A stretch of 30,162 nucleotides of DNA, taken from IMG/VR virus record IMGVR_UViG_2545824717_000013. The stretch is one strand, 5' to 3'. The position numbers were made by a program, and so were the translations under genes. Source of the DNA: a virus. Its lineage: Duplodnaviria > Heunggongvirae > Uroviricota > Caudoviricetes. Below are positions 698 to 24,385 of this stretch, one piece after another. Below the pieces are notes generated by a model. The model was given only the letters and a program-made list of their open reading frames with translations, had not been told where the DNA came from and ran no database searches. Within the stretch, counting starts at the first letter, position 1. Each line of letters opens with the position of its first letter.

Positions 698-1060
698 GGG
701 GCTGATTCTGGATTCGACGGGATTTGCGAAACCCAAGGTGCATGCCGAGGGGCGGTTGGCCTCGTAAAAAGCCGCAAAAAATAGTCGCAAACGACGAAAA
801 CTACGCTTTAGCAGCTTAATAACCTGCTTAGAGCCCTCTCTCCCTAGCCTCCGCTCTTAGGACGGGGATCAAGAGAGGTCAAACCCAAAAGAGATCGCGT
901 GGAAGCCCTGCCTGGGGTTGAAGCGTTAAAACTTAATCAGGCTAGTTTGTTAGTGGCGTGTCCGTCCGCAGCTGGCAAGCGAATGTAAAGACTGACTAAG
1001 CATGTAGTACCGAGGATGTAGGAATTTCGGACGCGGGTTCAACTCCCGCCAGCTCCACCA
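698..1060 (+). ncRNA. ssrA: tmRNA (SsrA), about 363 nt
   Basis: Starts GGGGCTGATTCTGGATTCGACGGG and ends GGTTCAACTCCCGCCAGCTCCACCA; contains tag-peptide reading frame region (GCAAACGACGAAAACTACGCTTTAGCAGCTTAA); position after smpB. Confidence 0.93.
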
Positions 1061-1064
1061 AATA
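1016..1064. repeat. attL: 49-bp direct repeat comprising the 3' end of ssrA (copy 1 of 2)
   Basis: Sequence atgtaggaatttcggacgcgggttcaactcccgccagctccaccaaata recurs identically at about 24337..24385. Confidence 0.8.
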
Positions 1065-1070
1065 AATCAA

Positions 1071-1103
1071 GGGGTTACGTGAAAGCGTAGCCCCTTTTTC
1101 TTT
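1071..1103 (+). terminator. Rho-independent terminator downstream of ssrA
   Basis: GGGGTTACG / CGTAGCCCC stem (one G-U pair) with tgaaag loop followed by a T-run. Confidence 0.5.
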
Positions 1104-1106
1104 GGT

Positions 1107-1129
1107 AGTGGCGGCAAAATGGCGACAGA
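1107..1129 (+). repeat. 23-bp direct repeat AGTGGCGGCAAAATGGCGACAGA (copy 1), candidate integrase arm-type site
   Basis: Exact second copy at about 24222..24244; both lie inside the prophage within about 100 bp of the att core. Confidence 0.4.
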
Positions 1130-1183
1130 CTTTTGCGTCCATCTTGCCTGTCGCCATCTTGAAATCATGCAAAGAGGTTTCAC

Positions 1184-1507
1184 ATGGAAGAACTTCACTT
1201 TGTTTACATCAATGCAAATGGTCGTATCGCTGTTCACTCTATACAGAGCATCAGTTATAGCGAAAATCATATACAGGGCATTTGTAAGAACACCGATCGA
1301 ATAAAAACCTTCCGAAAAGACCGCATTCTTAAACAGTACGATTCACCAGAACAAGCCATTCAGGAATGCGCGTCATTCCTCCCCGAAAGCTACTCACATC
1401 TCACTAAGCAGTCTGGTCCGAAAAAAATACATTCGATGTGTGTTTCACCGGATTTAAGAAAGCAGATAAAGAAAGATTGGTTGATAAGGCGAATGAACAA
1501 GGATTAA
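1184..1507 (+). CDS. WYL-like domain protein (N-terminal part of a probable WYL-BRCT gene split by a frameshift)
   Basis: ORF with AGAGG RBS; motif ...HIQGIC...RIKTFRKDRI resembles the WYL-domain FRxDRI signature; overlaps the next ORF in another frame. Confidence 0.5.
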   Translation: MEELHFVYINANGRIAVHSIQSISYSENHIQGICKNTDRIKTFRKDRILKQYDSPEQAIQECASFLPESYSHLTKQSGPKKIHSMCVSPDLRKQIKKDWLIRRMNKD

Positions 1508-1665
1508 CGGTAAGAACCTCTATAACCCAAAGCCTTCAGATGCTCTGTTGCGGTTACAATGCAGGCCCATCAAAAGTATCGGCAGCCAGGATGAAAGGCA
1601 CAATCATCATAGATGAGCTTGGCTTTATACATTTTCTTGAAACGGGTGAGATCCCAGATGAATAA
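1438..1665 (+). CDS. BRCT-like domain ORF (probable C-terminal part of the same gene, GTG-initiated in the ORF track)
   Basis: Sequence FTGFKKADKERLVDKANEQGLTV...IIDELGFIHFLETG resembles BRCT domains (as at the C-terminus of NAD-dependent DNA ligases); frame is open back to about 1408. Confidence 0.45.
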   Translation: MCFTGFKKADKERLVDKANEQGLTVRTSITQSLQMLCCGYNAGPSKVSAARMKGTIIIDELGFIHFLETGEIPDE

Positions 1666-1692
1666 AAACCTGCCGTAGCAGGTTCTCTTTCT
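1664..1692. terminator. Bidirectional hairpin between convergent BRCT-like ORF and ogr
   Basis: AACCTGC-cgta-GCAGGTT stem-loop flanked by A-run upstream and T-rich run downstream. Confidence 0.4.
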
Positions 1693-1907
1693 CAAAAATT
1701 CATATGCCCCTGACCACCTGGCAATGGATGTGGAGGAGCAGTAGCAATCAGTGCGGGTGTCACAATAAACCGGACCACTGTTTCATGAGTAACAAAAGTG
1801 CTCCCGCAGTTAATATTTTGGCACTGGCAGTAACGCTCTTTGGTGCTTTCAGTTACTTGAAAACTGCTCCTTGTGTGTGCCGCATGACCACACTTTGGAC
1901 AATTCAT
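1692..1907 (-). CDS. ogr: Ogr-type zinc-finger late-gene transcription activator
   Basis: MNCPKCGHAAH...ERYCQCQNINC: four-Cys zinc finger typical of P2 Ogr; start placed at internal Met of the 87-aa ORF to give about 72 aa. Confidence 0.8.
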   Translation of the reverse strand: MNCPKCGHAAHTRSSFQVTESTKERYCQCQNINCGSTFVTHETVVRFIVTPALIATAPPHPLPGGQGHMNF

Positions 1908-1978
1908 CATATCCAGATCCCTACCTTTGCTATCAGAATCATTGTAATGATACACAAAATATCAATATTGAGAACACT

Positions 1979-3079
1979 TTATTCCATTTCAAGATCATCA
2001 ATCTTCACTTCGAGTTCAATACTGGTTGTAAAACCGTTATCCGGGCTGACGGTATGTGTCAGAGTCGTAATGGTCCATTCCGCATCATCTATCGGCTGTT
2101 TAAAACCACTGACCTTCACAGGCATTTCCGTGTAGAGATCTGCCCGCCCTTCTGCCAGTTGTAGCGAAAATGACGCAACGCCGCGTTGCAGGCGTTCCCA
2201 CTGCATTTTCGCCGCTCGTTCGGCGTTGCTCCGGTTGGCATAAGTGCGATTAAGTACCAGCACGTTTTCATCCGTACCCACCAGGTAATCGCCCTGCTTC
2301 GCTTCTGGCTCTTTCTTCTGCTTCTTAGTTCTGCGCTTACGCTTCACCGTGGTGCTTTCTTTCTTCGCAGGTTCGCGGGTATGCAACCAGCTGGCAATTA
2401 CGCCCGTGTAGGCTCCGCGATCTGCCAGGGTAAATCGGTGACTGTCGCCGTCCTTGCGTGTGATAGTGATCACTGGCAGAGGTTTACCAGTGGCGCTTTT
2501 GCCCTGCCCCTGCCGGATGAATAACAGATTGCCATTTTTCACCGACGCGATGGCACCGTACTGTCGCGCCAGCCGCATCAGAAAACTGCCGTCACTCTCA
2601 TTAGTCTGGTCTATATGCTCCACGGGCTTATCCGACAGGTCTTTACCCAGTGCCATCTTCAGCTTGTGCCGCGCGGCTATTTCCTTCACCACTTCCCCGA
2701 CGGTGGTCTTATGCCACGATTTTTCACGGCGGGTATTCAGCGTTTCCCGAAAATCAGCACTTCGCGCCCGGATAGTCAGGCGGTCCGGTGCGCCAGTGTG
2801 TTCAATCTCGTCCACTGTGAATGCCCCTTTCGGGAAAAGCGGCTGCCCCTTCCAGCCCAGCGCCAGCGTAATAACCGCACCACGGCGCGGCAGCACGATT
2901 TTTCCGTCAGCGTCATCCAGCTCCAGATCAAGCTGGTCCGCTTCAAAGCCCCGGTTATCCGTCAGCGTCAAACTCATCAGGCGGTTATCCAGCACAGTGG
3001 TGATATCCCTGCCCTCAATACTGATGCTGAATGCGGGAGTTTTGTTGCCTTTGTTAAGCAGTTCAGAGCTGAAATTCAC
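1979..3079 (-). CDS. D: Phage late control/tail protein gpD
   Basis: 366-aa ORF (GTG start) at end of FETUD tail operon; recognised as P2 gpD-like. Confidence 0.85.
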   Translation of the reverse strand: MNFSSELLNKGNKTPAFSISIEGRDITTVLDNRLMSLTLTDNRGFEADQLDLELDDADGKIVLPRRGAVITLALGWKGQPLFPKGAFTVDEIEHTGAPDRLTIRARSADFRETLNTRREKSWHKTTVGEVVKEIAARHKLKMALGKDLSDKPVEHIDQTNESDGSFLMRLARQYGAIASVKNGNLLFIRQGQGKSATGKPLPVITITRKDGDSHRFTLADRGAYTGVIASWLHTREPAKKESTTVKRKRRTKKQKKEPEAKQGDYLVGTDENVLVLNRTYANRSNAERAAKMQWERLQRGVASFSLQLAEGRADLYTEMPVKVSGFKQPIDDAEWTITTLTHTVSPDNGFTTSIELEVKIDDLEME

Positions 3080-3561
3080 GACAGCAGCCCTCCCACCGTT
3101 TTACTGATATCACTTAAGGCAGACGTTGCCGTGTCCTGCAGATTATTCAGTTGCGCACTGAGATCACCGAACATATCGGACAGGGATTCATCCACTCGTT
3201 TGAGCGACAGGGTGAACTCAATCCGGCGCGGCATACCGTCGCGGAAAAACTCCGTTTTAGTCTGATTCAGTCCCTCAATCACATACATGCCGTAAATCGT
3301 GCCGCTGCCTTCAATCAGGGGCCATGCTTTCCCCTGTTCTGCCATCTGCTCCAGTGCCAGCAACGACAGCCTGCCACCTGTTATTTCCGGCATAAGAACA
3401 CCGGAAAGCGTCAGCATGTCGTTTTCCGGTCCCAGAAACTGCGTGGACGGACGTCGGTTTACCCGACTGTTTGCCGCATGTCGCCAGCTGCGTTGATACT
3501 GCAGTTCCTGATACGGAACGGTGCGCAGCATAAACACGTACAATCCCAGCACCATCATCAT
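3076..3561 (-). CDS. U: Phage tail protein gpU
   Basis: 161-aa ORF between tape measure and D, overlapping stop/start; P2 gpU-like. Confidence 0.8.
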   Translation of the reverse strand: MMMVLGLYVFMLRTVPYQELQYQRSWRHAANSRVNRRPSTQFLGPENDMLTLSGVLMPEITGGRLSLLALEQMAEQGKAWPLIEGSGTIYGMYVIEGLNQTKTEFFRDGMPRRIEFTLSLKRVDESLSDMFGDLSAQLNNLQDTATSALSDISKTVGGLLS

Positions 3562-6500
3562 GCGTCGTATCCCCCCTGATCGCTGTAGTTACTCCTGGCT
3601 TTTGCCTTCAGCCTGCGTTCACGTTCATCAAGCTGGCGTGCCACCTCCCGCGCAATATCCTGCGCACTTTGTCCTGGCTGCGTCTGAATGATGATCTGCG
3701 TCGGTGCCTCAATCCGTTGAACGAGCGGCACAGTGGCTGCGCGACTCACAATTGCTTCTCCACCTTTCGCGGGAAGTGCCAAAGGGTGCAACGGTGGAAG
3801 CTCTGCTGGCGCGGCAGCAACGCCCATCATTCCGGCAACAACGGCAGCCAGTGCAGCTGTATTTCTCCGGCTGGTCACATTTGCCGGGCCGTTAACAATT
3901 TCCGGCCCGTTTTCACCGACGATGCCAAACTGCCCGCGCGGGATATACCCGCCGCTGTCATACATCCCCGCAAAGCCATATCCCCATGATGGAAAACCAC
4001 CCGATGGCATCATCACTTTACCGTCTGCATTCACCGTCGCAGGTTTCTGACGCGTCACGCTTTCCGGCAGTTTTGCCTTTGCGGCCTCTTTACTGACAAT
4101 GCCGAGCTTCTCCAGCAACCAGGAAACGCCGGATTTCAGGGAGTCCAGCGGATGCATGACCATATTCAGCCCTTCCGCCAGTGCCTCCCCGAATCGCCGC
4201 CCCATTGCCGCTGCGCTCTGCAGTTCGGCAGAGGTCGACTTAACGGGCGTCAGCAGATCAGTAAACCAGCCCCACAGCGCCTGCACTTTGTCGCCAATCC
4301 ACTGGAACACGGGCTTAAGCGGTTCGAACGCTGCACTGATGGGACCTGCCGCCGCTTTGAATCCTTCCACCACGCCACCGAGAAATGCGGTGATGGGTTG
4401 CCAGTATTTCCAGACAACCAGCGCCACGCCCGCCAGTGCAGTAACCACAAGACCTATCGGACTGAGCAGAGCACCTAACAGACCAGATATGGCATACAGG
4501 GCAACGCGCAGCATCGCCAGTGGACCAGATGCCAGTACTCGCAGCACCGTGCCTGCGGCGGCCAGTCCACCGCGCAGTACCGCCAGAGGATTCATAAACA
4601 TCACAGCAACAGCACGTAAACCGGATAATCCAGACCGCAAAAGTGCAACCGGCGCACCTGCTACAGTTTTCAGGACATTTCCCGTCAGTGATGCCGTGCG
4701 GCGCAAAGACGACAACGGCGCAGTAAGTAAACCTGCGGCGTTGCCCGATGAAGCAAGCCCGCGTCGCAGCAGTGCCAGTGGTGCGCCAGCCAGCCAGGAC
4801 AACGCGCTGCTGGTTCGAGTTACTGCTGCCGTAACGGAAGATAACGTTTTGATACCCAACACAGAGAATCCCAGACGGATCACTGCCAGCGGCCCCAGCA
4901 CTGCAGCCAGCGCCACCGCTAAGGTGCCGAGGCCGACGGTAACCGCAGCCACAACAGCCGATGCTTTCATCAGTGTGCCTGTCAGTTCCGGGTTAGCTTC
5001 CACCCAGCGACGCAACGCCCCCGTGACGCTTTTCACCGTGTACAGAATATCCATCAGCGGCTGGCGCAGCGTTTCGCCCAGGCTGCTGAAGGTGTTCTGC
5101 GCTCCGGTTTTGACCAGCAACCACTGCGCAGAAAGTGAATCCTTGTTAATGTCGGATTCTTTCTGCATGGAGCCGAGCGCATCATTGCCCGCTGTCAGTT
5201 TTAACTGACGCTGCAGTTCCCGCAGGTTGTTTGCCAGTTTCGCCGCGTCATCGCCAAACTCTTTACCAAACAACATAGTCATGGCAGACAGGCGCTTGTC
5301 CTGCGGCAGCGCGTTTACCTTCTCCAGCACGCGCTGGATGGTTCCCATCGCATCCTTCGTCATCTGCTTTTCAATCACTTCAGGATTGAGTTTCAGCAGA
5401 TTCATCCCTTCAAAGAAACTCTTGCTTTGCATGGTGGCAATGGACAATTCACGCACCATCGCGTTTGCTGCACTGGCTGCAACCTCTGGCGCAGCGCCCA
5501 GTGTCAGGAAGGTGGAACCCAGCGCCGCCGCTTTACGATAATCCAGACGGTCAGCCACACCGCCCAGACGTTGCATCACATCAATGATGTCTGCCCCTTT
5601 CGACATGGCGTTATCATCCAGATAGTTCAGCGCATCACCGAGCTGTTCAATATTGCGGGTGGGGATTTTGTAGAGCTGGGCGATTTTCCCCAGACTTTCT
5701 GACAGTTCATCCGCTGGCAGCTCAAAGGCTGTTGCCGCCTTTGCTGCCGTACTGGCGAAGGCCAGCAGGTCACGTTTCTGATCTTCCCAGCTGTCGTCAG
5801 GGTTTGCGACGTTCATGCGCGCACCACCTTCAACCAGTGCAGCGAAGTCCACCGCACCGTTTTCCATCGGCAACTGTTCGCTGGCAGCCTTGATGGCATC
5901 CTGCATTTCATAAAAACGTGCAGTGCGGTTGCCATTATCGTCACGCAGACCATTGACCTGCTTTGCCACACCTTTCATGGCATCTTCCATGCTGGTATAG
6001 CTTTTTACTGCCGCCATCACTGGCGCACCCATTGCCAGCCCTGCAGCCGAGGTGGTGGCTCCGGCACCTGCAATACGATCACGCACCTCCAGCGAACGGG
6101 CATAACTGGCACGCGCTGCATTCATCCTGCGCTGAGCTTCCCCCAGTCGCTTCAGCCGCGCCTCCTGTTTCGAAAGTTCCTGGTTATAACGTGATGTTTC
6201 ACGGGCTAAACGGGCAGTTGCTCCCGCATCGTCTTTCGCAGAAATTCCCGCCCGGTACAGTTCAGCACGCACAAGCGCCGTCTGCTGCTGCAGCTTTTTC
6301 TGGCGTTCTTCCAGGCGCTGAACAGCCAGCCGTTGACGGCCCAGAGCAACAACCTGACGTTGCGAAGGCGGCCCCATCGCTCCCAGTTCCTGACTGAGCA
6401 AATTTGCACGCTGGCGGGCATAGTTCAGCCTGTCGCCTAATTTCTGATTTTCTGCCTGCAGCTTTCGGAAGCTGTCCAGACTGCTCCCGGCCTGATCAAG

Positions 6501-6635
6501 CTGCTTTATTGCATCGCGGGATTTTTTGACAGCAGCAGCCAGTTCTCTTGAACTGGCCTGCGCAGATCGAAATGGGCGGGTGAGCTTGTCAACCGCATTA
6601 AGAATGACCTGCAGACGCAGGTTGTTATCACTCAT
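3558..6635 (-). CDS. T: Tail tape measure protein gpT
   Basis: 1025-aa ORF, N-terminal coiled-coil-rich and central Ala/Gly/Leu-rich repeats; position after E/E'. Confidence 0.9.
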   Translation of the reverse strand: MSDNNLRLQVILNAVDKLTRPFRSAQASSRELAAAVKKSRDAIKQLDQAGSSLDSFRKLQAENQKLGDRLNYARQRANLLSQELGAMGPPSQRQVVALGRQRLAVQRLEERQKKLQQQTALVRAELYRAGISAKDDAGATARLARETSRYNQELSKQEARLKRLGEAQRRMNAARASYARSLEVRDRIAGAGATTSAAGLAMGAPVMAAVKSYTSMEDAMKGVAKQVNGLRDDNGNRTARFYEMQDAIKAASEQLPMENGAVDFAALVEGGARMNVANPDDSWEDQKRDLLAFASTAAKAATAFELPADELSESLGKIAQLYKIPTRNIEQLGDALNYLDDNAMSKGADIIDVMQRLGGVADRLDYRKAAALGSTFLTLGAAPEVAASAANAMVRELSIATMQSKSFFEGMNLLKLNPEVIEKQMTKDAMGTIQRVLEKVNALPQDKRLSAMTMLFGKEFGDDAAKLANNLRELQRQLKLTAGNDALGSMQKESDINKDSLSAQWLLVKTGAQNTFSSLGETLRQPLMDILYTVKSVTGALRRWVEANPELTGTLMKASAVVAAVTVGLGTLAVALAAVLGPLAVIRLGFSVLGIKTLSSVTAAVTRTSSALSWLAGAPLALLRRGLASSGNAAGLLTAPLSSLRRTASLTGNVLKTVAGAPVALLRSGLSGLRAVAVMFMNPLAVLRGGLAAAGTVLRVLASGPLAMLRVALYAISGLLGALLSPIGLVVTALAGVALVVWKYWQPITAFLGGVVEGFKAAAGPISAAFEPLKPVFQWIGDKVQALWGWFTDLLTPVKSTSAELQSAAAMGRRFGEALAEGLNMVMHPLDSLKSGVSWLLEKLGIVSKEAAKAKLPESVTRQKPATVNADGKVMMPSGGFPSWGYGFAGMYDSGGYIPRGQFGIVGENGPEIVNGPANVTSRRNTAALAAVVAGMMGVAAAPAELPPLHPLALPAKGGEAIVSRAATVPLVQRIEAPTQIIIQTQPGQSAQDIAREVARQLDERERRLKAKARSNYSDQGGYDA

Positions 6636-6761
6636 CGTTGGCCCCGCTTCTCTGAATCGCTTTATACCGCCATTCCAGCACTTCGGTCAGCGGCATAACG
6701 TCAGTAACGGATGGCGGCCAGTGAAAAATGGTGGCGATATCTGCCACCAGATCGTCAACCG

Positions 6762-7064
6762 TCAGGCTGTCGGTAAACCGGCAAGCACCGACTTCTTCAA
6801 CAAAAAAGTGACAACCTCAACCGACATGGCAGTGAGATCTGCCGGGTCCATCTCTGCAATTTCCTGTGCAGTCAGTGCCGGACTGGAGATGCGGGGGATC
6901 ACGGTCATCATCGCGTTTACATCCATATCCATAATGGCCTGCAGGCGTGTACCGCGCAGCGCACCGGACTGCGGTTTACGCAGCACAATTTCGGTGATTT
7001 CTGTTTTACCGCGCTTGATGGGGGTATCCAGTTGAATGGTCTTTTCAGTCTGCTTATCGCTCAT
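6762..7064 (-). CDS. E: Tail assembly chaperone gpE (E' extension by -1 frameshift to about 6633)
   Basis: 100-aa ORF between FII and T; contains T6G slippery run near its 3' end. Confidence 0.75.
   Translation of the reverse strand: MSDKQTEKTIQLDTPIKRGKTEITEIVLRKPQSGALRGTRLQAIMDMDVNAMMTVIPRISSPALTAQEIAEMDPADLTAMSVEVVTFLLKKSVLAGLPTA
6801..6808 (-). other. Slippery heptamer TTTTTTG for programmed -1 frameshift (E to E+E')
   Basis: Minus-strand CTTTTTTG within codons V-T-F-L-L-K-K of gpE; alternative frame appears to end in a TGA overlapping the ATG of T. Confidence 0.5.
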
Positions 7065-7118
7065 TTTGCTGTCCTGTCAATTGGGTTCTGGCGCGGTATC
7101 CCGCGCCGTTCAGATATA

Positions 7119-7634
7119 TCAGAGGCCGAGGGCGTTGCGGTGCGCTTCCATCAGGTCCACACCGTCCACAATTTCCACCATGTTGATAAGGTCCACTTCA
7201 TAGAGCACCTCACCATTGATGGTCAGCTTCGCGTAGCTGTTGGTACTGGTCACTTTGGTGGTGTTGCTTTCGCCCGTCTTCCACTCGCCGGAATCCACTT
7301 CTTTGTGACGTCCACGCACGACAAGCTCCACGGCCTGCACTTCCCCGGTATCGTCACGCTGAATAGAGCCGGTAAAGCGCAGCTGGATGCCATCCACCGT
7401 GGCTTTACCCATCTGTTTAAACAGCAGCAATTCAGTACCACCAATGGAAAATTCTGTATCCAGCGCACTGTCATCAAGCCCCAGATCCACATCCACCGCA
7501 CCCGGCATTCCGCCGCCGCGATACTTCTCATATTTGCGGGTAAATTTCGGCAGCGTCAGCGACTCAACGATCCCCTGCCAGTTGTTCCCGTCGTTAAACA
7601 GGTTCAGGTGTTTTAATTTGCGTGGTAAAGCCAT
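7119..7634 (-). CDS. FII: Tail tube protein gpFII
   Basis: 171-aa ORF directly downstream of sheath gene; P2 FII-like. Confidence 0.88.
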   Translation of the reverse strand: MALPRKLKHLNLFNDGNNWQGIVESLTLPKFTRKYEKYRGGGMPGAVDVDLGLDDSALDTEFSIGGTELLLFKQMGKATVDGIQLRFTGSIQRDDTGEVQAVELVVRGRHKEVDSGEWKTGESNTTKVTSTNSYAKLTINGEVLYEVDLINMVEIVDGVDLMEAHRNALGL

Positions 7635-7643
7635 GTTGTCCCC

Positions 7644-8816
7644 TTACGCGCTGACCTGGCTGGCGAAATTCACCAGGTACTGATCGGTGATGCGCTGACG
7701 CAGCATCAGGTTTTCAAGTGGCGGCACTGGCGTGTAGTCGTAGTCGATGGTGAGTTTTCCGGCTTTCAGCGTGTCTTTGTCGTTCACCGACTCATCCAGC
7801 CAGCAATCACCACCAATGAGATAGCCCTGACTGACCAGGCTGCGCATTTTGGCGCGGATACCTTCGATAATGTCGCGGGCCAGCGACGGGTTAAGCGGTT
7901 TATCCACCGCCCACATGTGTGCTTCTGCCATCGTGTCCATCAGCACCTGCGCCGTGCGGGTGTAGTTTTCGAAGGCAAAGAGCGGGTCATCACTCAGGCA
8001 GCGGGAACCCCAGAAGCGGAAACCGTCTTTACGCACAAGCGTGGTGACGTCGTTCTGGTTCAGCAGACCTGCATCGGTTGCCGGGTCCTGCAGATCCCAG
8101 AACACATCTGCAGAAATTCCGGTGACACCGTTCACGCCCACGTTGGACAGGCTTTTGTGCCATCCGGTCTGCTCGTCAATTTTGGCGCGCAGACCAAGCG
8201 CACGGGCGGTGGCATATGCCGTTGCTTCGGCTTTCAGCACCGTGTCCCAGCCAGTAAAGTCAGGCCAGATCAGCATCCCTTCGCGCTGGCTGAAGTTTTC
8301 GCGGTAAGTGATCGCCTCCTGCACTGTCTTGCAGCCATACGCTGACAGGTAAGCAAATCCACGCAGGCTTTGCGCCACGCTCAGCAACTCAGTAGCTACC
8401 GCCTTGGTGTCGTGGCCTGGCACGCCGAGAATGCGCGGTTTAACGCCGAGCTGTGACTGGGCAGATAACAGGGCTTTCATACCTGTTTTTTTACCTTCAG
8501 CAGTCACTGCGCCGATGATATTGGTCGTGGTTTCGTCTTCCGTTTCACCCTGCGGCACACGCACAACAATGGTCACGGGTTTTGCCTGGTCAGCGATGGC
8601 ATCCAGCGAACGGGCCAGAGTACCTGACTCACCCGCTTTACCGCTGGCAGTCAGCACATCAGTGATCAGCACGGGTTTATTAAGAGGAAACATTTTTGCA
8701 TCGGCATCATCGCCCGTGCAGACCATACCCACGATGGCGGTGCTCACCGTGGTAATAGATCGGGTGCCTTCGTTGACTTCAACAACGCGCACCCCGTGGT
8801 GGTAATCCTGAGCCAT
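7644..8816 (-). CDS. FI: Tail sheath protein gpFI
   Basis: 390-aa ORF, P2 FI-like, first gene of FETUD operon. Confidence 0.9.
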
Positions 8817-8892
8817 AGTGGCGAACCTCCTGATTGGATTAGGCTTCGCCCTATGTTGAAGTGATTGTGCCTGACAAACAGCTAAGCGCAGT

Positions 8893-16327: not shown

Positions 16328-16432
16328 GTTCTTACATCCGGAACGTTCCTTAGTGCAGCCAGCTGTCGTCTTCCCAAACCTGCTGCATAATTTCCATCAC
16401 CCGCTTTTTGTCTTCATCAAGCTTTAAGCCAC

Positions 16433-17683
16433 TCAGTTCAACGCCGTTTGCCGACCCTTTACGGATGCGGATACCGTCGCATTTGTCCAGGTTGGGTTTG
16501 GTCTGCCGTTATTGAGCGTGGAATGGAAACGTGACGGACAGGTAATGGTGTAGAAAACGGCGCAATCACCACGCATTTCCGCGATAAGCTCCAGACCTTT
16601 AACACAGGCCATCATCTCATTGCGGCGGTGCGCCGGGTTGCTGCTGCTGGCGTTTACCACGTCTTCCATATCCAGCGTGTCGCCCTCTTCGTTCACCAGT
16701 TCATGAGAACGGAAAAACTCCAGTGACTTGCGGCGCTGCTCACGTTTATGCATCACGGCTTCATAGCTGACATAGGGAGATGCTTTTTTGCTGACCAGGC
16801 AGACAGCACGCAACTGCTCTTCCCGCCATTCGCAACGCATCTTCCATAATTTCCGATACCACCAGTCGGCACACAACATACGCGCCAGCGAACCCGGAAT
16901 GAGTTCATAGGGCACGGGTTTACGGCGGTTTCTTTTCCGACGGAGTTGCTCAAACGCAGGCGGAATAACATCCAGACGCAGGGTTTCCGCTGCCACCTTT
17001 TCCCATGTTTTGCGGATTTCTTCTGGCTTAACGTCATCGGTGGCATACAAATCACCACAAGCGGCATCAAGGCACATGCTCATATGCGCAGCGACAAGGG
17101 TAGACAGGCGCTTCACCTGATCCTGACTCATTTCAGGCAGGATAAGCAGGCCGTCCAGCCCTTCATGGCTTGCCATAAAACGAAAAGATGCAGATAGCTG
17201 GCTGTCGCGTACATGCTCCAGTCGTTCCAGACATGGCTTAATCGTCTCACGTAAATAGCGGGAATAAGCCTTTGGCCTGCCTAGGCTGCTAAAGTATTCA
17301 ATACGTTGCATCAGCGGCTTGCTGATATGGGAAGGCTGGGCGTTGACGTCCGCCAGAATGACCATATCCGGATTAAAACGCTGCTGCTCATGCGCCAGCT
17401 TTGCCCGGCTAATGAGCTTATCCTGCTCCATTTCGCGCTGGACAGGATCACGTGATTCATTAAAAAAATAACGCTCCCAGACCTGATCACTCAGTGCCTC
17501 GCGGCGCAGTTGTTCCTGCTCGTTATCGGCAGCGTACAGAGTGATCAGGTTTGAAAGCGCAGAAACCGGCGCAACTTCCGCCGGGTCCAGATAAGGGTTA
17601 ATGGCCTTTTTCGGGCTGTTCCATGAGAACGCTGCGGCAGCCTCGTTAAAGCCGCAGCAGTTGTTCATATCGGCATGACTCAT
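16433..17683 (-). pseudogene. A: Replication initiation endonuclease gpA, N-terminal fragment (3'-truncated)
   Basis: 416 aa ending shortly after a rolling-circle motif-1-like FYTITCP; P2 gpA is about 760 aa and the catalytic Tyr region is not present downstream. Confidence 0.7.
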
Positions 17684-18537
17684 GCACGTACTCCGTACAC
17701 GGCTGAACTATCCACGCCACGCGAAGGATCAAATCCCACCCAGCAGAGCGGCCCGGAAACAGCGATGATTTCTGTTGCAGATTTACTCTCACCAGCTGCC
17801 ACACCGATGCTGCGTTTTGCCTTGATGTAGTGGTGAGTAAAATTGCGATACAGCGAACGGATCAGGGATGTGTCACTGTTAGAAACAATGACCGGATGTC
17901 CTTCTGATGACCGATGTTCAAGAACGGATGCCAGGTGATACTGGTCATCTTCAGTGAAACCATCAGTGTGATAGCCGGAAAACGTACCGTCATACGGCGG
18001 ATCGCAATACACCACATCCCCCACCTGCAGCATCGCCAGCGTTTCATCAAAGCTTGCGCAGATAAACGTTGCCCGCTGGGCTTTCTCTGCAAATGCGCGA
18101 ATTTCTTTTTCAGGGAAATACGGATTTTTATAATTACCGTACGGAATGTTGAAATGCCCGCTCTTGTTATAGCGACATAACCCACGGTAACCATGACGAT
18201 TGAGATACAGGAAATATACCGCTTTCATGAAATCAGTAATTTCAGTGGAGTAATTAAACTCCTGCCTTATGTTGTAATAAGCCACATCCCTGTTTGCTTC
18301 CTCAAATAAAGCTCTGGCACGAGATATAAACGCTTCGCAATCAGCGACAATCTTTTTATAGAGGTTGATTAAATCAGGATTAATATCCGCAACAAGATAG
18401 CTGGGGTAATCCGTCTCCATCATCACAGCACAGGAACCCGCGAAAGGTTCAACCAGTCGCGGGCCAGCAGGAAGATGTTTTTTCAGTTCGGACATAATGG
18501 CGGTTTTATTTCCCGCCCATTTCAGGATGGTGCTCAT
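17680..18537 (-). CDS. Dam-family DNA N6-adenine methyltransferase
   Basis: DPPY motif ([10 protein letters not shown]) and N-terminal FAGSCAV SAM-binding motif; start placed at the ATG overlapping the upstream stop (ATGA). Confidence 0.85.
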
Positions 18538-18761
18538 ACAACACCTCCGTTGTAATGTTTGCCTTTCAGCTCTGCGATTTCCTGACAGGTAATGCAAAGC
18601 TGCACTCCAGGAATGGCGCGGCGTCGTGCTGGCGGAATTGGCGCTTCACATTCAATACAAAGCACACGAGACACGCCCGGTGTTTTGGCACGGGCAGCAC
18701 GGATATAGCGCTGGCGTCCTTCTTCAACGCGCTGCTGTACGAGATCCATTGCATCTGCCAT
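18534..18761 (-). CDS. TraR/DksA-type C4 zinc-finger protein
   Basis: 75 aa with CIECEAPIPPARRRAIPGVQLCITCQ motif. Confidence 0.7.
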   Translation of the reverse strand: MADAMDLVQQRVEEGRQRYIRAARAKTPGVSRVLCIECEAPIPPARRRAIPGVQLCITCQEIAELKGKHYNGGVV

Positions 18762-19000
18762 TAGTGGATCTCCTGCGCTTCGTTCTGGATTGCTTCAGCA
18801 GTCACACGCAGCAGTTCTGCCGCTTCGACGTGGTTTAGCTGGCGGGATGTGATATGACACGCCAGGCTATCAAGGCGAGCTGCCATTGCTTCAGCCCTTG
18901 CCCGGCGTTCTTCCAGACGAGCCTCTGTCAGTAAAATATTAAGCCCTGCATCATCCGGTCCGGTTTTAGTCGTGAGGGTTTCAATATTACGCATAATCAA
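18761..19000 (-). CDS. Hypothetical phage early protein
   Basis: 79-aa ORF translationally coupled to the neighbouring genes in the early operon. Confidence 0.45.
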   Translation of the reverse strand: MIMRNIETLTTKTGPDDAGLNILLTEARLEERRARAEAMAARLDSLACHITSRQLNHVEAAELLRVTAEAIQNEAQEIH

Positions 19001-19061
19001 TTCTCCTGAATTTAGATAAAGGGATGCCCGGCGGGTTTACGCCATTAATTTCATTAGTTGC

Positions 19062-19403
19062 TTAATTCGGCATGGTTAGCCGTCTGGGAAATAAGCTCAC
19101 CACTGCACGAAAATGATTCATTGCTTTAATCAACTCCCGCTTTTCGTCAGTGGTCAGCTCATTAATGCTGATGCTATGACGTTCAGCTGGAATTTTTGCC
19201 ATAAAGAATATGGCAGCCAGTGCTCGTTTATTTTGTTCGTTATTGATATCCCGTGGATCACGCATATCTTTAATAAACCGCTCAAGCTCTGACTCAATAT
19301 TCAGGCCAAATACTTTCGCCCTTAACTCCGCAATGTGATTAAGTCCATTCAGGCGTTCACCGGGGCTTAATGGAACAGTCGCCGCAGCGCCATTAATTGC
19401 CAT
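19062..19403 (-). CDS. Hypothetical phage early protein
   Basis: 113-aa ORF in the early operon. Confidence 0.45.
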   Translation of the reverse strand: MAINGAAATVPLSPGERLNGLNHIAELRAKVFGLNIESELERFIKDMRDPRDINNEQNKRALAAIFFMAKIPAERHSISINELTTDEKRELIKAMNHFRAVVSLFPRRLTMPN

Positions 19404-19425
19404 AATTCATATCCCCAAAACGCAA

Positions 19426-19650
19426 CTATCGTTCTTTGTTCTTACGGTAACATTCAAGAGGAGATACATTTTTTCGTATCGTCTCTTTAACCTGCTCTCC
19501 CCGTAAAAACGTCCCATCCCTTAGCGTGAAAAAGTAACTGCCATCGCCCGACAACGACGGATAACAACAGAGCAAATCATCTTCAGGTACTGAATAACTC
19601 TCCCCTCTGTAACGAAACTGATAAACCACTTCACTTTCCGCTGCATACAT
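19426..19650 (-). CDS. Hypothetical phage early protein
   Basis: 74-aa ORF; overlaps the 3' part of the upstream ORF in another frame. Confidence 0.35.
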   Translation of the reverse strand: MYAAESEVVYQFRYRGESYSVPEDDLLCCYPSLSGDGSYFFTLRDGTFLRGEQVKETIRKNVSPLECYRKNKER

Positions 19651-19847
19651 TTTGACTTTCTCCGTTTCCTCGTGGTCAATTCAGACAGCAATTCATCTTG
19701 TGAATGACATGGATGCCAGCGTTTACCATCCTCACCCATGATCCAGCCGTGACCGTAGTGCATTGCCGGGCTTTGTTTTACCAGCAGCGATGCAAATGAT
19801 GGTTCTTTCGTCAGCATAAGCACCTCACAGCAAACCGAATGAAGCAC
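19521..19847 (-). CDS. Hypothetical early protein (position of 186 fil); 3' end uncertain
   Basis: 108-aa ORF directly after cII; N-terminal half looks protein-like, C-terminal half overlaps the next ORF. Confidence 0.3.
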   Translation of the reverse strand: MLHSVCCEVLMLTKEPSFASLLVKQSPAMHYGHGWIMGEDGKRWHPCHSQDELLSELTTRKRRKSKCMQRKVKWFISFVTEGRVIQYLKMICSVVIRRCRAMAVTFSR

Positions 19848-20334
19848 CGAGGCCAGTCACGGTATCAACTGCACTCACCATCGCAGGATTAGCCTGTAAA
19901 CGGGCCTGCAATGAAACAGCCGCCAGCGCCATCAGTCGTGTTACAGAGTTAATGCTGCTGATAGCATCACGACGACCGGCACTAGTTTTTACATCACCAG
20001 ATACCGCACCTGCAGCAACACGCCCGATCTCTGCGGTTGCACTCATGACGTAATGTGGCAGTTTCTCTTTTGCCACCTCATTAATTGGTACGCATGGCAG
20101 GCAGTGAATCTGTGCCAGAAAGCCATCTACCAGCGTTGAATCTTCAGTCAGATCGGTGAGCAACCAGATTTCTGGCGCTGTGAGCTGATGCGGTTGATCT
20201 GGGTTGAGTTTGTTTCGCAGTGTCTGAACATTCATTCCTGCACGTTCTGCCAGCTTCGCCATGTTGTGACGTAGTGCAAAAGCTCTACAGGCTTCATCAA
20301 AATTCGGATGTTTGGAAATCTTGTAATCAAACAT
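19825..20334 (-). CDS. cII: CII-like lysogeny establishment regulator
   Basis: 169 aa (same length as 186 CII), HTH-like region; second gene of the rightward operon after apl. Confidence 0.7.
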   Translation of the reverse strand: MFDYKISKHPNFDEACRAFALRHNMAKLAERAGMNVQTLRNKLNPDQPHQLTAPEIWLLTDLTEDSTLVDGFLAQIHCLPCVPINEVAKEKLPHYVMSATAEIGRVAAGAVSGDVKTSAGRRDAISSINSVTRLMALAAVSLQARLQANPAMVSAVDTVTGLGASFGLL

Positions 20335-20366
20335 GCTGCCCCCTTAGAAAGTTCCCATAATTGAAC

Positions 20367-20609
20367 TTACTTACCAACAATGACGCGGAAGTTGGAATGA
20401 CCGAGGGATTCACGAACCTGGTCGGTTTTGTACATCAGGTAACGAAGGCTTACGCGACCTTTGTTTTTTTCTTTCTTGACCATGTACTTGGCGAGCTGGC
20501 CATGGTGAATTTTCTGGTAAACAGAGCCACGGGAGATACCTTCCCATTCAGCGAACTCTGCAGGCGTAGCCATCTCTTTTGGTACACGAATTGAAATATC
20601 AGTGCTCAT
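20367..20609 (-). CDS. Apl/Cox-like excisionase and lytic-operon first gene
   Basis: 80-aa HTH protein divergent from cI across a 120-bp switch region. Confidence 0.65.
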   Translation of the reverse strand: MSTDISIRVPKEMATPAEFAEWEGISRGSVYQKIHHGQLAKYMVKKEKNKGRVSLRYLMYKTDQVRESLGHSNFRVIVGK

Positions 20610-20665
20610 AGTGCAGTATCTCTCAGTTAAGGTTTGGTTTATGTCGTTTTATCTTGTTTTATGCA

Positions 20666-20708
20666 ATCCAATATTTGAACAATCGAGATACTACGATCCA
20701 ATATTTGA
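20666..20708. promoter_or_regulatory. Switch-region operator repeats: two copies of ATCCAATATTTGA 30 bp apart
   Basis: Direct 13-bp repeats at about 20666..20678 and 20696..20708 in the cI/apl intergenic region, each with an AT-rich near-palindromic core. Confidence 0.4.
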
Positions 20709-20728
20709 TACGTCAATAGGATTAAAAA

Positions 20729-21361
20729 ATGATACAGGTGAAGGCTGGCGAGAATACAGGGGGTAGAGAGGCTATCCATAGGTTGATGGCTGCCTATGAT
20801 TTCAAGTCCCGACAGCAGCTATGCGATCACTTAGGCGCATCTAAAAGCACTATGGCAAACAGATACTTAAGGGATAGCTTCCCTGCAGAATGGGTGATCC
20901 AATGCGCTCTTGAAACAGGCGTTTCATTACTCTGGCTAACTACAGGACAAGGCGAACCAGGAACAAAAATTGATGATAGAAAAAGTATCAATTTCGTGAA
21001 CTCCAGCAAAGTAAAACCACTTTCTGAGCTTGTATCGCCAGAGATCGATAAGGCTAGCCTTATCGGAGGTTCGTTGATTGAAGCCGGGAAGGCCATCATT
21101 GATAGCAGCCTGCTTCCCCCTGACTCAAGCGAGCTACTTCTCGTAAATACCAATGGCGATTCATATTTAATTGACCGTAACCAGACACTACCAGTGAATG
21201 GGATGTGGTTGGTCGATATCGACGGGATAAAAAGCATTGTTAAGCTAACTCGCCTTCCCGGAAACAGATTAGTTGTACATCAAGATGATTCTTCGTTTGA
21301 GTGCAGCCTGGATGATATCGAGGTTGTTGGCCGCGCATTGAAAATCATTAAGAGCCTTTGA
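20729..21361 (+). CDS. cI: CI-type immunity repressor (186-like)
   Basis: 210 aa, N-terminal HTH (...QLCDHLGASKSTMANRYLRD...ALETGVSLLWLTTGQGEP) and C-terminal domain; immediately upstream of int. Confidence 0.8.
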   Translation: MIQVKAGENTGGREAIHRLMAAYDFKSRQQLCDHLGASKSTMANRYLRDSFPAEWVIQCALETGVSLLWLTTGQGEPGTKIDDRKSINFVNSSKVKPLSELVSPEIDKASLIGGSLIEAGKAIIDSSLLPPDSSELLLVNTNGDSYLIDRNQTLPVNGMWLVDIDGIKSIVKLTRLPGNRLVVHQDDSSFECSLDDIEVVGRALKIIKSL

Positions 21362-21362
21362 T

Positions 21363-22376
21363 ATGACCATCAGAAAACAGCCGAACGGAAAATGGTTGTG
21401 CGAGTGTTACCCGAACGGGCGTGACGGCAAGCGCGTGCGCAAGCAATTTGCGACAAAGGGCGAGGCTGTAGCATTCGAAAACTTCACCATGGATCAAGTG
21501 AACAAAAAGCCGTGGCTGGGTGAAAAGGAAGATCGGCGGCGTTTGTCAGAATTGATTGAGCAGTGGCACTCCCTTTACGGCCAGACGCTCGCAGACCCCA
21601 AGCGCCTGATGGCGAAACTGAATATTATCTGCAATGGCCTAGGCGATCCCGTCGCCTCTGAATTAACCGCCGGTGACTTTACGAAATATCGTGAAGCACG
21701 GTTGAAAGGAGAGGTACGTAACGAAGAAGGCGCGCTAATGTCGCCAGTAAAACCACGCACGGTAAACCTTGAACAGCGTAACTTATCATCCGTTTTTGGC
21801 ACCCTTAAGAAGTTGGGCCACTGGTCAGCGCCTAACCCACTCGCCGGGCTACCGACATTCAAAATCGCAGAGGGTGAATTGGCATTCTTAGCCTTGGACG
21901 AAATTAAACGCCTGCTTGATGCCTGCGCTGATTCTCAAAGCCCTAGCCTATTGATGATCGCAAAGGTATGCCTAGCTACCGGCGCGCGGTGGAGTGAAGC
22001 CGAAAACCTTCAAGGCCATCAGTTATCAAAATATCGGATCACCTATACCAAAACCAAAGGCAAGAAAAACCGAACTGTACCGATATCTCAGGAGCTATAC
22101 GACGAACTACCCAAAAACAGGGGGAAGCTGTTCACGCCATGCAGAAAAGCTTTTGAACGAGCAGTGAAGCGGGCCAATATAGACTTACCAGCGGGACAAT
22201 GCACTCATGTGCTACGCCATACTTTCGCCAGTCATTTTATGATGAACGGCGGAAACATACTTGTTTTGAGAGATATTTTGGGTCATTCTGATATCAAGAT
22301 GACCATGGTATATTCACACTTTTCACCAGATCATCTTGAAGACGCAGTTTATAAAAACCCACTCAACTTTTTATAA
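21363..22376 (+). CDS. int: P2-family tyrosine integrase
   Basis: 337 aa with C-terminal catalytic motifs (ATGARWSEA...HVLRHTFASHFMMNGG...LGHSDIKMTMVYSHF). Confidence 0.9.
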   Translation: MTIRKQPNGKWLCECYPNGRDGKRVRKQFATKGEAVAFENFTMDQVNKKPWLGEKEDRRRLSELIEQWHSLYGQTLADPKRLMAKLNIICNGLGDPVASELTAGDFTKYREARLKGEVRNEEGALMSPVKPRTVNLEQRNLSSVFGTLKKLGHWSAPNPLAGLPTFKIAEGELAFLALDEIKRLLDACADSQSPSLLMIAKVCLATGARWSEAENLQGHQLSKYRITYTKTKGKKNRTVPISQELYDELPKNRGKLFTPCRKAFERAVKRANIDLPAGQCTHVLRHTFASHFMMNGGNILVLRDILGHSDIKMTMVYSHFSPDHLEDAVYKNPLNFL

Positions 22377-22385
22377 TGTACAGAC

Positions 22386-24128
22386 TTACATTGATAAATA
22401 ATCCAACTCATCTTTCATAGGAATAATTTGTTCATATAATCGATGATATGATTTACCAATTGCCCCTCTAAATTGAATTAATTTAGGTGGATTATTACCT
22501 ATATTAATAATATGATCTTGTGCAATACCCGGATAAGGATCAATGAAAATTATTTCAGCGACCTCTAATTGATATGCTTTTTTTGCACAAAGTTCACAAG
22601 GACTTGCTGTAGTATACAACTTACCACCTTGGACACCAACGCCACCATATTTAGATAATTGTAAAAAGGCATTTTCTTCAGCATGTAAAGCTCTGGTATG
22701 GACCTGATTCCCTTTTTTATTATCATCAAGACTATTATGAATATCCTTGAAGCAATATGACAAATTACGTCCTTTAAAAATTTCAGAGCTTGATTCAATC
22801 GCTCTAAACTTTATTAAATTACTTTTAGCTTTCTTTCTAAAAAGAGCATCATTTCGCTCATATGAGCTATATACTTTCGAATCAAAATCATTGATCAACC
22901 CATCGAGTGATCTCATTGAACATGGTATCTGCCCTTTAGCTACATCATTCCAACCAACTGATTTAATTGAATTATCATTATCTGTAACAACGGCACCGAC
23001 CTGCCTCGATATACATCCAGAGTTTAATTTAACAGTATATGCGACCTGCATAACTCGCTCCATCGCTGTAGGAGTGATCAATCCAGGATGCTTCATTAGA
23101 GCGATATACCATGCAAGTTGTGCTTTAAGTATGTTATTGTTATCAAACTCATTTTTAGGATTATAAAGATGTATATCTGAAATTTCTATGCATTTCGTTA
23201 CATTAGGGTTCGTTAAATGTTTATATTGATTGTCTTTATCTCCTTTTCCTGATTCAATATCATCAATGTGTTTAATGCGCTCAGATGAAAACTTGTGTAG
23301 CTTCTGTAAATATTTTTTCCTATGCTCATCAGGAGCATTAATTGATACCAAATGGAATGCAGCATATCTATCTTTAAAGAATTTAGCTTCATATGGATTA
23401 CGTATAGCATCAATAACTACTAATGCCTTACCACCTTGGCTTTTTCTAATTAGCTTAATGACCCTATTAATAGTTTCAGGCAAATGAAATACCGATTTTG
23501 GATCAAATTCTTCTGTTTCATAGTTTGTTTTTACTTCACCAAGCCGTCTAACAGATTTTCCAGCGGCCTGATAAGTTGATACATAAAGACCTGTATTTAT
23601 CTCATTAAGTTCTTTTTTGAAGTTATTAGTGAAAAACCTAACCAAATGCAATGTTTTTCTTATGTTAGATACATCTAGATTATCGAGATCTAATTCTTGA
23701 CTATGATCAATAAGTGCTTTTAATATATCCGTCCTTATTTTTCTAAGTTGTGTTTTTGAAAATGCTCCTTCATTAAGTATCTTGTTTAATTTATCTTCAT
23801 CAATGCTATCTTTAGTTGACGACGTGATGAAGTGTGAAAGTTCAGTATGTGACATTGCTAACAAATAAACTGATAGCAAGTCACTAACCTTGATTGAGTA
23901 AAATGCCTCCCAATGATTCTCAGTGAAATCCTTAACTATCTTATAACGCTGTAAATCTAAACCATTATAAAAATCAGTTAATTTATCCACATCGGGAAAT
24001 ACTGTCTCATTACTTTCTAAAATAGTTGCTGCTGTAGTACAACCAGAACCAGTTCTTCCAGTTAAGCCAACTAGAATAAACTGCCCATTTTCTAAAAAAA
24101 GTTCACTTACGAATTTCTGTGTTTTCAT
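22386..24128 (-). CDS. Kinase-like plus cytidine/dCMP-deaminase fusion protein (antiviral dCTP deaminase DCD/AvcD-like)
   Basis: AT-rich ORF; C-terminal HAEENAF...SPCELC zinc-binding deaminase signature; N-terminal GLTGRTGSG P-loop-like motif; start placed at Met preceded by GGGG RBS (ORF track extends to 24284). Confidence 0.75.
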   Translation of the reverse strand: MKTQKFVSELFLENGQFILVGLTGRTGSGCTTAATILESNETVFPDVDKLTDFYNGLDLQRYKIVKDFTENHWEAFYSIKVSDLLSVYLLAMSHTELSHFITSSTKDSIDEDKLNKILNEGAFSKTQLRKIRTDILKALIDHSQELDLDNLDVSNIRKTLHLVRFFTNNFKKELNEINTGLYVSTYQAAGKSVRRLGEVKTNYETEEFDPKSVFHLPETINRVIKLIRKSQGGKALVVIDAIRNPYEAKFFKDRYAAFHLVSINAPDEHRKKYLQKLHKFSSERIKHIDDIESGKGDKDNQYKHLTNPNVTKCIEISDIHLYNPKNEFDNNNILKAQLAWYIALMKHPGLITPTAMERVMQVAYTVKLNSGCISRQVGAVVTDNDNSIKSVGWNDVAKGQIPCSMRSLDGLINDFDSKVYSSYERNDALFRKKAKSNLIKFRAIESSSEIFKGRNLSYCFKDIHNSLDDNKKGNQVHTRALHAEENAFLQLSKYGGVGVQGGKLYTTASPCELCAKKAYQLEVAEIIFIDPYPGIAQDHIINIGNNPPKLIQFRGAIGKSYHRLYEQIIPMKDELDYLSM

Positions 24129-24221
24129 ATATCCCCACATCGAAAAGTATTGATATTTTTTTATTTTTTCATCACTTCCAGTATAAATTATCGTAGGTAG
24201 ATATTCTATTGCATTAGTATA

Positions 24222-24244
24222 AGTGGCGGCAAAATGGCGACAGA
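24222..24244 (+). repeat. 23-bp direct repeat AGTGGCGGCAAAATGGCGACAGA (copy 2), candidate integrase arm-type site
   Basis: Identical to 1107..1129. Confidence 0.4.
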
Positions 24245-24336
24245 AGAGTAAAAATGCATAACACTTGCTAATACGCCAAAACACTAAATCAATGATAATA
24301 TTGATAAATTATTGCATCTCAACCATTAATAATAGT

Positions 24337-24385
24337 ATGTAGGAATTTCGGACGCGGGTTCAACTCCCGCCAGCTCCACCAAATA
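24337..24385. repeat. attR of prophage remnant / attL of the downstream island: 49-bp ssrA 3'-end duplicate
   Basis: Identical to 1016..1064. Confidence 0.8.

Follow-up and report, generated by a model that had tools for sequence, protein, structure and literature searches.

Elements that integrate into tDNAs (genes for transfer RNA or transfer-messenger RNA [tmRNA]) ordinarily carry in attP a copy of the 3' end of their target, which regenerates the gene and displaces its old end (PMC4383910). The tmRNA gene, ssrA, is the most enriched tDNA target, and Islander records 125 tandems among 3919 islands (PMC4383910). Fels-2 and SopEPhi integrate in ssrA (PMC3448106), and 'Ssra*B' has been listed as an element of unknown type in Escherichia coli B (PMC3032704). 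We analyzed a 30,162-nucleotide (nt) stretch of DNA, IMG/VR record IMGVR_UViG_2545824717_000013 (the window, with positions counted from its first letter), in which two elements follow a complete ssrA gene. Element 1 (1065 to 24336, 23.3 kb) is, as judged from its genes, a defective Fels-2/186-type prophage of the P2 family, and element 2 (24386 to 29775) is an island with a P4-type integrase, the 'Ssra*B'-type remnant of E. coli B. We conclude that this array very probably arose when two elements integrated site-specifically, one after the other, at the 3' end of ssrA and then decayed. Every part of the arrangement has been described before, and the locus is an ordinary one.

Catalogued tandem islands consist of a regenerated tDNA, a displaced fragment of its 3' end in direct orientation and one integrase per island, and the same parts are found here. 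The ssrA locus and its attachment sites comprise the following features.

1 to 483, plus strand: smpB, the chromosomal flank (open reading frame [ORF] 1 to 483)
698 to 1060, plus strand: complete ssrA, the tmRNA gene (ARAGORN; Rfam RF00023, 295.8 bits, model positions 1 to 374; tag ANDENYALAA)
1016 to 1064, plus strand: att copy 1, the attL core of a Fels-2-type prophage, one copy of an exact 49-bp repeat; the core is also found in the attP of the free phage Cartapus and of Fels-2
1069 to 1101, plus strand: phage-borne intrinsic terminator that now serves ssrA, a 12-bp stem followed by a T run
1107 to 1129, plus strand: P' arm, two tandem 186-type putative integrase (Int) arm-binding repeats, TGGCGGCA and TGGCGACA, with 11-bp spacing
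24222 to 24244, plus strand: P arm, two tandem 186-type putative Int arm-binding repeats, identical to 1107 to 1129 (a 23-bp exact repeat)
24337 to 24385, plus strand: att copy 2, the prophage attR core and displaced ssrA 3' fragment, also the left end of element 2
24416 to 24449, plus strand: intrinsic terminator from element 2 that formerly served ssrA, a 9+3-bp stem with a T6 run (a scan found part of the stem)

The gene at 698 to 1060 was the sole full-length tmRNA gene that ARAGORN and Rfam found in the window. It is identical to K-12 ssrA across 363 nt, with a promoter-like site upstream at 654 to 683, and PGAP places smpB likewise in the genomes E1620, LF4-1, and M9682-C1. A first-pass annotation, made from the sequence alone, had proposed that the 3'-terminal 49 bp of ssrA occur twice in direct orientation, and both of our searches bear this out. 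A repeat search returned a direct repeat of 52 nt with one mismatch (1013 to 1064 and 24334 to 24385), and an exact string search returned a 49-bp core (1016 to 1064 and 24337 to 24385), for which we calculated a chance expectation of ∼1e-21 for an exact 49-mer repeat in 30 kb. The repeat extends 4 bp beyond the mature CCA end of the tmRNA. Since the sequence upstream of copy 2 is AT-rich phage DNA and not the body of ssrA, copy 2 is a fragment of the ssrA 3' end only. A duplicated complete ssrA, which the annotation itself had named as the finding that would count against its reading, was ruled out by the single tmRNA match and by the phage DNA ahead of copy 2. An assembly artifact was ruled out because the junction between attR and the second integrase gene recurs in the independent complete genomes E1620 and E1433.

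As the Islander criteria for a tDNA island specify, the complete gene (698 to 1060) and the displaced 49-bp fragment (24337 to 24385) are on the same strand. The two integrase genes (21363 to 22376 and 24548 to 25777) are intact ORFs of unrelated subfamilies, and the proteins gave no mutual BLASTP alignment. However, the strict Islander definition wants a tDNA fragment for each member of a tandem, and element 2 has lost its own. The description of the 49-bp repeat as an att site shared by two elements therefore holds in part: the repeat is real, but its two copies are the attL/attR pair of the phage alone.

We rebuilt attP in silico by joining 24129 to 24385 to 1065 to 1200 and compared it with phage genomes. 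In Cartapus the rebuilt sequence was contiguous over a span that starts 10 nt left of the core, includes the right arm and reaches into the BRCT-domain gene and ogr. Fels-2, SopEPhi, and RE2010, all Salmonella phages, have the core and the adjoining flank in common with it, with similarity ending where the P' arm repeats end. At the virgin site, represented by LF4-1, attL and attR are identical over 46 bp, and the window has 49 bp because the flank contributed by element 2 also starts with AATA.

Integrases of the 186 type have arm sites that consist of a pair of direct repeats flanking the core on each side (PMC3448106). The reverse complement of the window repeat, TTTTGCCGCCACT, fits the published 186-type arm consensus, tgccGCCActt (PMC3448106), and with two such repeats per arm the integrase of element 1 falls within this type. 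The TGGCGGCA/TGGCGACA pair was found in the window only at the P' arm and at 24224 to 24242, against 0.02 pairs expected by chance in the window, and a third copy of the arm repeat lies inverted at 1149 to 1156. The P' arm repeats are conserved in Fels-2 and Cartapus, and both phages have a matching repeat pair ∼90 nt upstream of the core despite different surrounding sequence. By homology, Int is predicted to bind these repeats. The 8-mer TGGCGRCA occurs 12 times in the window against 2.2 expected; five of these are the att arm sites, and the remaining seven are scattered through prophage genes with no obvious meaning.

Each copy of the repeat is followed by a terminator. The one after copy 1 folds at -19.8 kcal/mol (1061 to 1104; z = -6.0) and is kept in the attP of Cartapus and Fels-2. 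The one after copy 2 gave -27 kcal/mol for the 70-nt stretch 24386 to 24455 (z = -4.5), and CP4-57 of K-12 bears a homologous hairpin at the equivalent position. The proposal that the phage supplies the terminator of ssrA thus stands. The one behind copy 2, however, had been taken for the original ssrA terminator, and it was instead brought by element 2. The ancestral flank is what follows attR in LF4-1 and, in K-12, borders CP4-57 on the right. In this strain, both the terminator of ssrA and the final 45 nt of the tmRNA gene come from the phage; the locus is of little consequence beyond its correct annotation.

The first-pass annotation had also read the DNA after copy 1, which completes the tmRNA gene, as a P2/186-like remnant, and the genes of element 1 agree with this.

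1184 to 1666, plus strand: BRCT-domain gene with a -1 frameshift in an A run, the ORF being split into 1184 to 1507 and 1438 to 1665
1692 to 8816, minus strand: late and tail genes ogr, D, U, T (tape measure), E/E', FII (tube), and FI (sheath)
8959 to 9531, minus strand: DNA invertase (Pfam Resolvase and HTH_7)
Within 8959 to 11537: alternative tail-fiber C-terminal and assembly genes (Pfam Gp53-like_C, two Caudo_TAP, Collar), in agreement with the LF4-1 annotation
11067 to 11537, minus strand: C-terminal remnant of tail-fiber gene H
11559 to 14359, plus strand: terminase ATPase gpP and portal gpQ (ORFs of 588 and 345 amino acids [aa])
16433 to 17683, minus strand: truncated replication endonuclease gpA, 416 aa against ∼804 (Pfam Phage_GPA, profile positions 1 to 216 of 321)
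17680 to 20609, minus strand: early genes for Dam methylase, a TraR/DksA-like protein, DUF2732, DUF5347, Fil, CII, and Apl/Cox-like
20367 to 20609, minus strand: Apl/Cox-like excisionase-repressor (phrog_575, Cox-like excisionase)
20729 to 21361, plus strand: 186-type CI repressor (Pfam Phage_CI_repr and Phage_CI_C)
21363 to 22376, plus strand: prophage tyrosine integrase, intact ORF of 337 aa (Pfam Int_N and Phage_integrase)

A megablast of the region showed many P2-family prophages at ssrA in complete E. coli genomes, and element 1 shares gene content and order with Fels-2 and with the LF4-1 and W12-1 prophages. Its closest complete relative is the LF4-1 prophage, which PGAP annotates from ssrA outward as a BRCT-domain protein, ogr, D, U, tape measure, E/E', tube, sheath, invertase, and tail fibers, followed by baseplate, lysis, and head genes, terminase, portal, and cargo, and then by DinI, replication endonuclease, Dam, CII, Apl-like, CI, integrase, and an anti-phage dCTP deaminase. 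Nucleotide identity to LF4-1 was 98.9% for 1692 to 8816, where the gene order is as in Fels-2, and 99.86% for 17680 to 20609, where Dam was recognized as Pfam MethyltransfD12; P and Q were 94 to 97% identical to the annotated LF4-1 and W12-1 genes. Pfam and PHROG identified the 186-type regulatory set of CI, Apl, CII, Fil, and DinI/Tum-like proteins, and Int is 92.9% identical at the amino acid level to Fels-2 Int and 91.6% to Cartapus Int.

Among described phages, the Fels-2/SopEPhi type (Peduoviridae; Felsduovirus and relatives, among them Escherichia phage Cartapus) shares the order from attL to attR: ogr-D-U-T-E-FII-FI-invertase-tail fiber, then P-Q-cargo-dinI-A-dam, then CII-Apl-CI-Int. 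Fels-2 also has the same att core in the ssrA 3' end (a 47-bp attP as annotated), the phage-borne terminator and the 186-type arm repeats. Only 65% of element 1 aligns with Fels-2, however, at ∼81% nucleotide identity, and the E. coli prophages are closer (94 to 99.9%). Element 1 further differs from Fels-2 in being defective, with two deletions and a truncated gpA, and in carrying a dCTP deaminase gene between int and attR.

The DNA after copy 2 had been assigned to an integrase of the P4/CP4-57 type, and we found the following features there.

24548 to 25777, plus strand: P4/CP4-57-type tyrosine integrase, 409 aa (Pfam Arm-DNA-bind_3, Phage_int_M, and Phage_integrase)
26060 to 27616, plus strand: large serine recombinase (Pfam Resolvase and Recombinase)
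27606 to 28502 and 28499 to 29395, plus strand: two ParB/RepB-like genes (Pfam ParB_N and RepB)
29776 to 30162, minus strand: partial IS1, which cuts element 2 and runs off the window (Pfam DDE_Tnp_IS1)

The integrase gene begins 163 nt past copy 2. Its domain set, its score against NCBIfam PRK09692 (443 bits, cutoff 434) and its 47.9% amino acid identity to K-12 IntA place it in the P4/CP4-57 type as proposed. CP4-57 likewise has a P4-type integrase, with the same domains and NCBIfam family, directly after ssrA behind an island-borne hairpin. The two islands differ in that the integrases are just 47.9% identical and in that CP4-57 carries yfjH-alpA-yfjI and further genes where element 2 has the serine recombinase and two ParB-like genes; we found neither CP4-57 genes (such as alpA and yfjI) nor P4 core genes (psu, delta, sid, alpha primase) in the visible 5.4 kb of element 2. 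Moreover, CP4-57 keeps a degenerate 16-nt ssrA fragment at its right end, whereas element 2 is truncated by IS1 and has no attR. The sequence at 29776 is an IS1 terminal inverted repeat; a search with the left-end inverted repeat gave no match, and the end present at 29776 is the other one.

Because IS1 truncates element 2, the island lacks a distal ssrA fragment. A third ssrA fragment was found neither in the window nor within 20 kb downstream in M9682-C1, E. coli B, and 573, nor within ∼6 kb downstream in E1620. E1620, M9682-C1, and E. coli B share this IS1 junction and have csiD/glaH after it. In related genomes this IS1 adjoins either a truncated alpha-amylase pseudogene or csiD/glaH directly (locus L003, 25458 to 27803; locus L007, 25461 to 26464). 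The gene ypjA and the ancestral ssrA flank with its native terminator, which lies beside ypjA in K-12 and LF4-1, appear to have been deleted in a lineage that includes E. coli B and enterotoxigenic E. coli (ETEC) O6:H16.

We compared the window with isolates that lack one or the other element, as the first-pass annotation had suggested, and found both single-element states. Genomes without the prophage carry the exact junction that its excision would produce: the in silico excision product (500 to 1064 joined to 24386 to 24900) was matched at 100% identity over 1080 nt in ETEC O6:H16 and other genomes, and its two halves are contiguous in 975 genomes. In prophage-free isolates, the first base of copy 2 is precisely where the match between the window and ssrA starts. 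In E. coli B and ETEC O6:H16, ssrA runs straight into the four genes of element 2, after which come this IS1 and then csiD/glaH, and element 2 with this IS1 truncation was found at 100% identity in prophage-free genomes. Conversely, LF4-1 has a complete prophage that is 98 to 99.9% identical to element 1 and no element 2, and its attR adjoins the native ssrA flank with its own terminator, the sequence to the right of CP4-57 in K-12.

Both elements also occur together elsewhere. Genomes 573 and W12-1 have tandems of a complete prophage and a P4-type island with other cargo, and W12-1 has another integrase allele. E1620 and E1433 have a differently decayed remnant with the same junction and are 99.85% identical to the window over 16472 to 30162, which spans the right arm and element 2. 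Among 5,426 genomes, 22 of the 30 best matches spanned both elements and at least 19 tandem junctions were listed, both being lower bounds. The claim of sequential integration into one site is upheld by the single-element isolates and by junctions that lie exactly at the repeat. The locus is a clean example of how elements that target the tmRNA gene regenerate their target and stack.

The sequence and its distribution fit standard tDNA integration, and we propose the following course of events. Element 2 would have integrated first, carrying in an ssrA 3' end and a terminator of its own, and IS1 would later have removed the distal part and attR. A Fels-2/186-type phage, whose attP core is a 46- to 49-bp copy of the ssrA 3' end, would then have integrated: its tyrosine integrase would bind the 186-type arm repeats, two to either side of attP, and recombine attP with the 3' end of ssrA. 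The phage-borne copy and the phage terminator would thereby complete the tmRNA gene (attL, 1016 to 1064), and the old 3' end, still joined to element 2, would be pushed 23.3 kb downstream (attR, 24337 to 24385). Subsequently, the prophage would have lost ∼9.5 kb (head, baseplate, and lysis genes) and ∼1.7 kb by microhomology deletions and acquired the BRCT frameshift, while keeping the CI, Apl, and Int ORFs, the att sites, the arm repeats and the defense cargo (dCTP deaminase and a DUF4145 module). We infer that element 2 came first and the phage second because the IS1-scarred element 2 is found at 100% identity in many prophage-free genomes and because the prophage lies next to the gene body.

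The decay of element 1 is marked by two junctions.

11527 to 11529: deletion junction 1, ∼9.46 kb gone relative to LF4-1 and W12-1, with a 3-nt overlap
16472 to 16477: deletion junction 2, ∼1.66 kb gone, with a 6-nt overlap

At junction 1, BLAST alignments leap from 14970 to 24433 in LF4-1, and the missing span runs from inside tail-fiber gene H to just upstream of gpP, taking the H N terminus, I, J, W, V, S, R, the lysis genes, X, L, M, N, and O. At junction 2 they leap from 33527 to 35193 in W12-1 and from 28840 to 30501 in LF4-1, with loss of the 5' end of dinI, a small ORF and the C-terminal half of gpA, whose full gene in LF4-1 is 2415 nt. Capsid, baseplate, lysis, and full gpA genes are thus absent from element 1. 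In the BRCT-domain gene, alignment with the intact 483-nt LF4-1 gene shows a single-base deletion in an A8 run, at ∼1421 to 1427 of the window; the gene is DNA ligase-like by PHROG, and LF4-1, E1620, and Cartapus each have it as an intact gene for 160 aa. These deletions, the truncated gpA and the BRCT frameshift make "remnant" an apt term.

Element 1 retains intact CI, Apl/Cox-like, and Int ORFs, together with the two att sites and the full set of four arm repeats. Judging from these parts, the remnant could still excise, in a reaction that by homology would depend on Apl. With gpA and the tum/dinI gene both truncated, it would probably be unable to replicate and to respond to SOS, respectively. 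The locus also illustrates how prophage decay can spare an integration module and defense genes.

Several observations weigh against the proposed course of events or parts of it. The two identical copies of the repeat record neither the crossover point nor the order of arrival, the activity of Int and Apl here is predicted from homology, and the BRCT frameshift could be either a real pseudogene or a sequencing error in a homopolymer. In addition, identity to LF4-1 and E1620 is only 94% over 11527 to 16472, against 99.86% in the right arm. The nearest relatives form blocks: 1 to 9633 is LF4-1-like (98.9%), 11527 to 16473 is W12-1-like (96.7%), and 16472 to 24382 is LF4-1/E1620-like (99.86%). 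Since both junctions sit at mosaic boundaries, recombination between two resident P2-like prophages, rather than two internal deletions, could have made the remnant, and an E. coli genome often holds several P2-like prophages (PMC3032704). However, overlaps of just 3 and 6 nt at the junctions are what illegitimate deletion typically leaves, mosaicism is a feature of P2-like phages anyway (PMC3448106, PMC13586616), and a second parental prophage for comparison is not available. We regard such recombination as unlikely, but as an origin of the remnant that deserves to be kept in view; it would leave the conclusion of a tandem array unaffected.

We find it very unlikely that the order was reversed, with the phage entering an island-free ssrA and the P4-type island later entering the prophage attR. 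Copy 2 does hold the last ∼20 nt of ssrA, the portion used by CP4-57-type elements, and the copies themselves are silent on order. Nevertheless, element 2 with the same IS1 truncation lies directly at ssrA, at 100% identity, in many prophage-free genomes such as E. coli B and ETEC O6:H16, and the reverse order would need arrival of the island, the identical truncation and precise loss of the prophage in all of them. Integration at a complete gene also puts the newest element beside the gene body, which is the position of the prophage. A composite or coupled unit, in which a P2-type helper and a P4-type satellite move or act together, is suggested by the adjacency of the elements and by P4-type integrases being typical of P4 satellites, elements that rely on helpers of the P2 family (PMC9122126, PMC13586616), but it is improbable in the extreme given that each element is found alone in other genomes, that the same prophage type pairs with unrelated islands (in W12-1 the integrase is 80% identical and the cargo different), that element 2, as far as it is visible, carries a serine recombinase and ParB-like genes but none of psu, delta, sid, and primase, and that element 2 is truncated by IS1 and without attR.

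P2 phages have defense hotspots between gpQ and gpA and in the slot between int and att, the latter with 3% of P2 systems (PMC13586616, PMC9122126), and element 1 has cargo in both.

14368 to 16471, minus strand: cargo at the gpQ-gpA hotspot (GC content of 42.8%)
14368 to 15066, minus strand: DUF4145 protein (Pfam DUF4145; weak PADLOC match to PD-T7-4, 1.2e-6)
15356 to 15967, minus strand: 203-aa protein (phrog_26391)
16016 to 16327, minus strand: small ORF
∼16350 to 16477, minus strand: 3' part of a dinI/tum-like gene
22386 to 24128, minus strand: anti-phage dCTP deaminase in the int-attP slot (PADLOC dCTPase, 6.3e-140; NCBIfam equivalog NF041025, 415.5 bits, cutoff 400)

By its family membership, the dCTP deaminase (gene GC content, 32%) is predicted defense cargo and one more example of the int-att slot; we see no substantive difference from other P2-like prophages in this respect. 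The DUF4145 and 203-aa genes are a candidate defense system. This module (14368 to 15967) recurs as a conserved unit in 24 complete E. coli genomes, LF82 and W12-1 among them. The int-attP slot (22386 to 24336) varies among relatives, in that Cartapus has a RES-domain gene there, 573 and W12-1 have unrelated hypothetical genes and Fels-2 has no gene (slot genes of related loci: L004, 2186 to 3391; L008, 18864 to 19925; L009, 41110 to 41778), and the Int gene and the P-arm repeats that flank it stay conserved. The suggestion that both elements bear defense cargo held for element 1 but not for the visible 5.4 kb of element 2, which gave no convincing PADLOC match; marginal MTase_II matches to the N-terminal domains of the ParB-like proteins were not accepted.

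The Int, Apl, and CI ORFs, att sites, arm repeats, deaminase and DUF4145 module have been kept, and replication, head, and lysis functions have been lost. For this reason the remnant might be a maintained, still excisable defense cassette rather than debris, an idea that we consider doubtful. The remnant in E1620 and E1433 lost other genes yet kept the arm from int through the dCTP deaminase gene to attR at 99.85% identity. If the idea is true, it could imply selection for the defense arm, with reversible excision restoring the older junction between ssrA and the island.

Two gene groups outside the att and cargo regions also drew our attention. The invertase of element 1 is of the Gin/Cin type and lies beside oppositely oriented alternative tail-fiber genes. 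The N-terminal part of the switchable gene has been deleted, so the tail-fiber switch is orphaned; an inverted-repeat scan of the 8959 to 11537 region for crossover sites gave only weak pairs of 14 to 18 nt. In element 2, a second class of recombinase (serine) lies directly behind the P4-type tyrosine integrase on one island. The serine recombinase and two overlapping ParB-like genes (26060 to 29395; phrog_95, phrog_3951, and phrog_31451) could form an uncharacterized functional module; the trio has a GC content of 36.6% and is present in >500 E. coli genomes.

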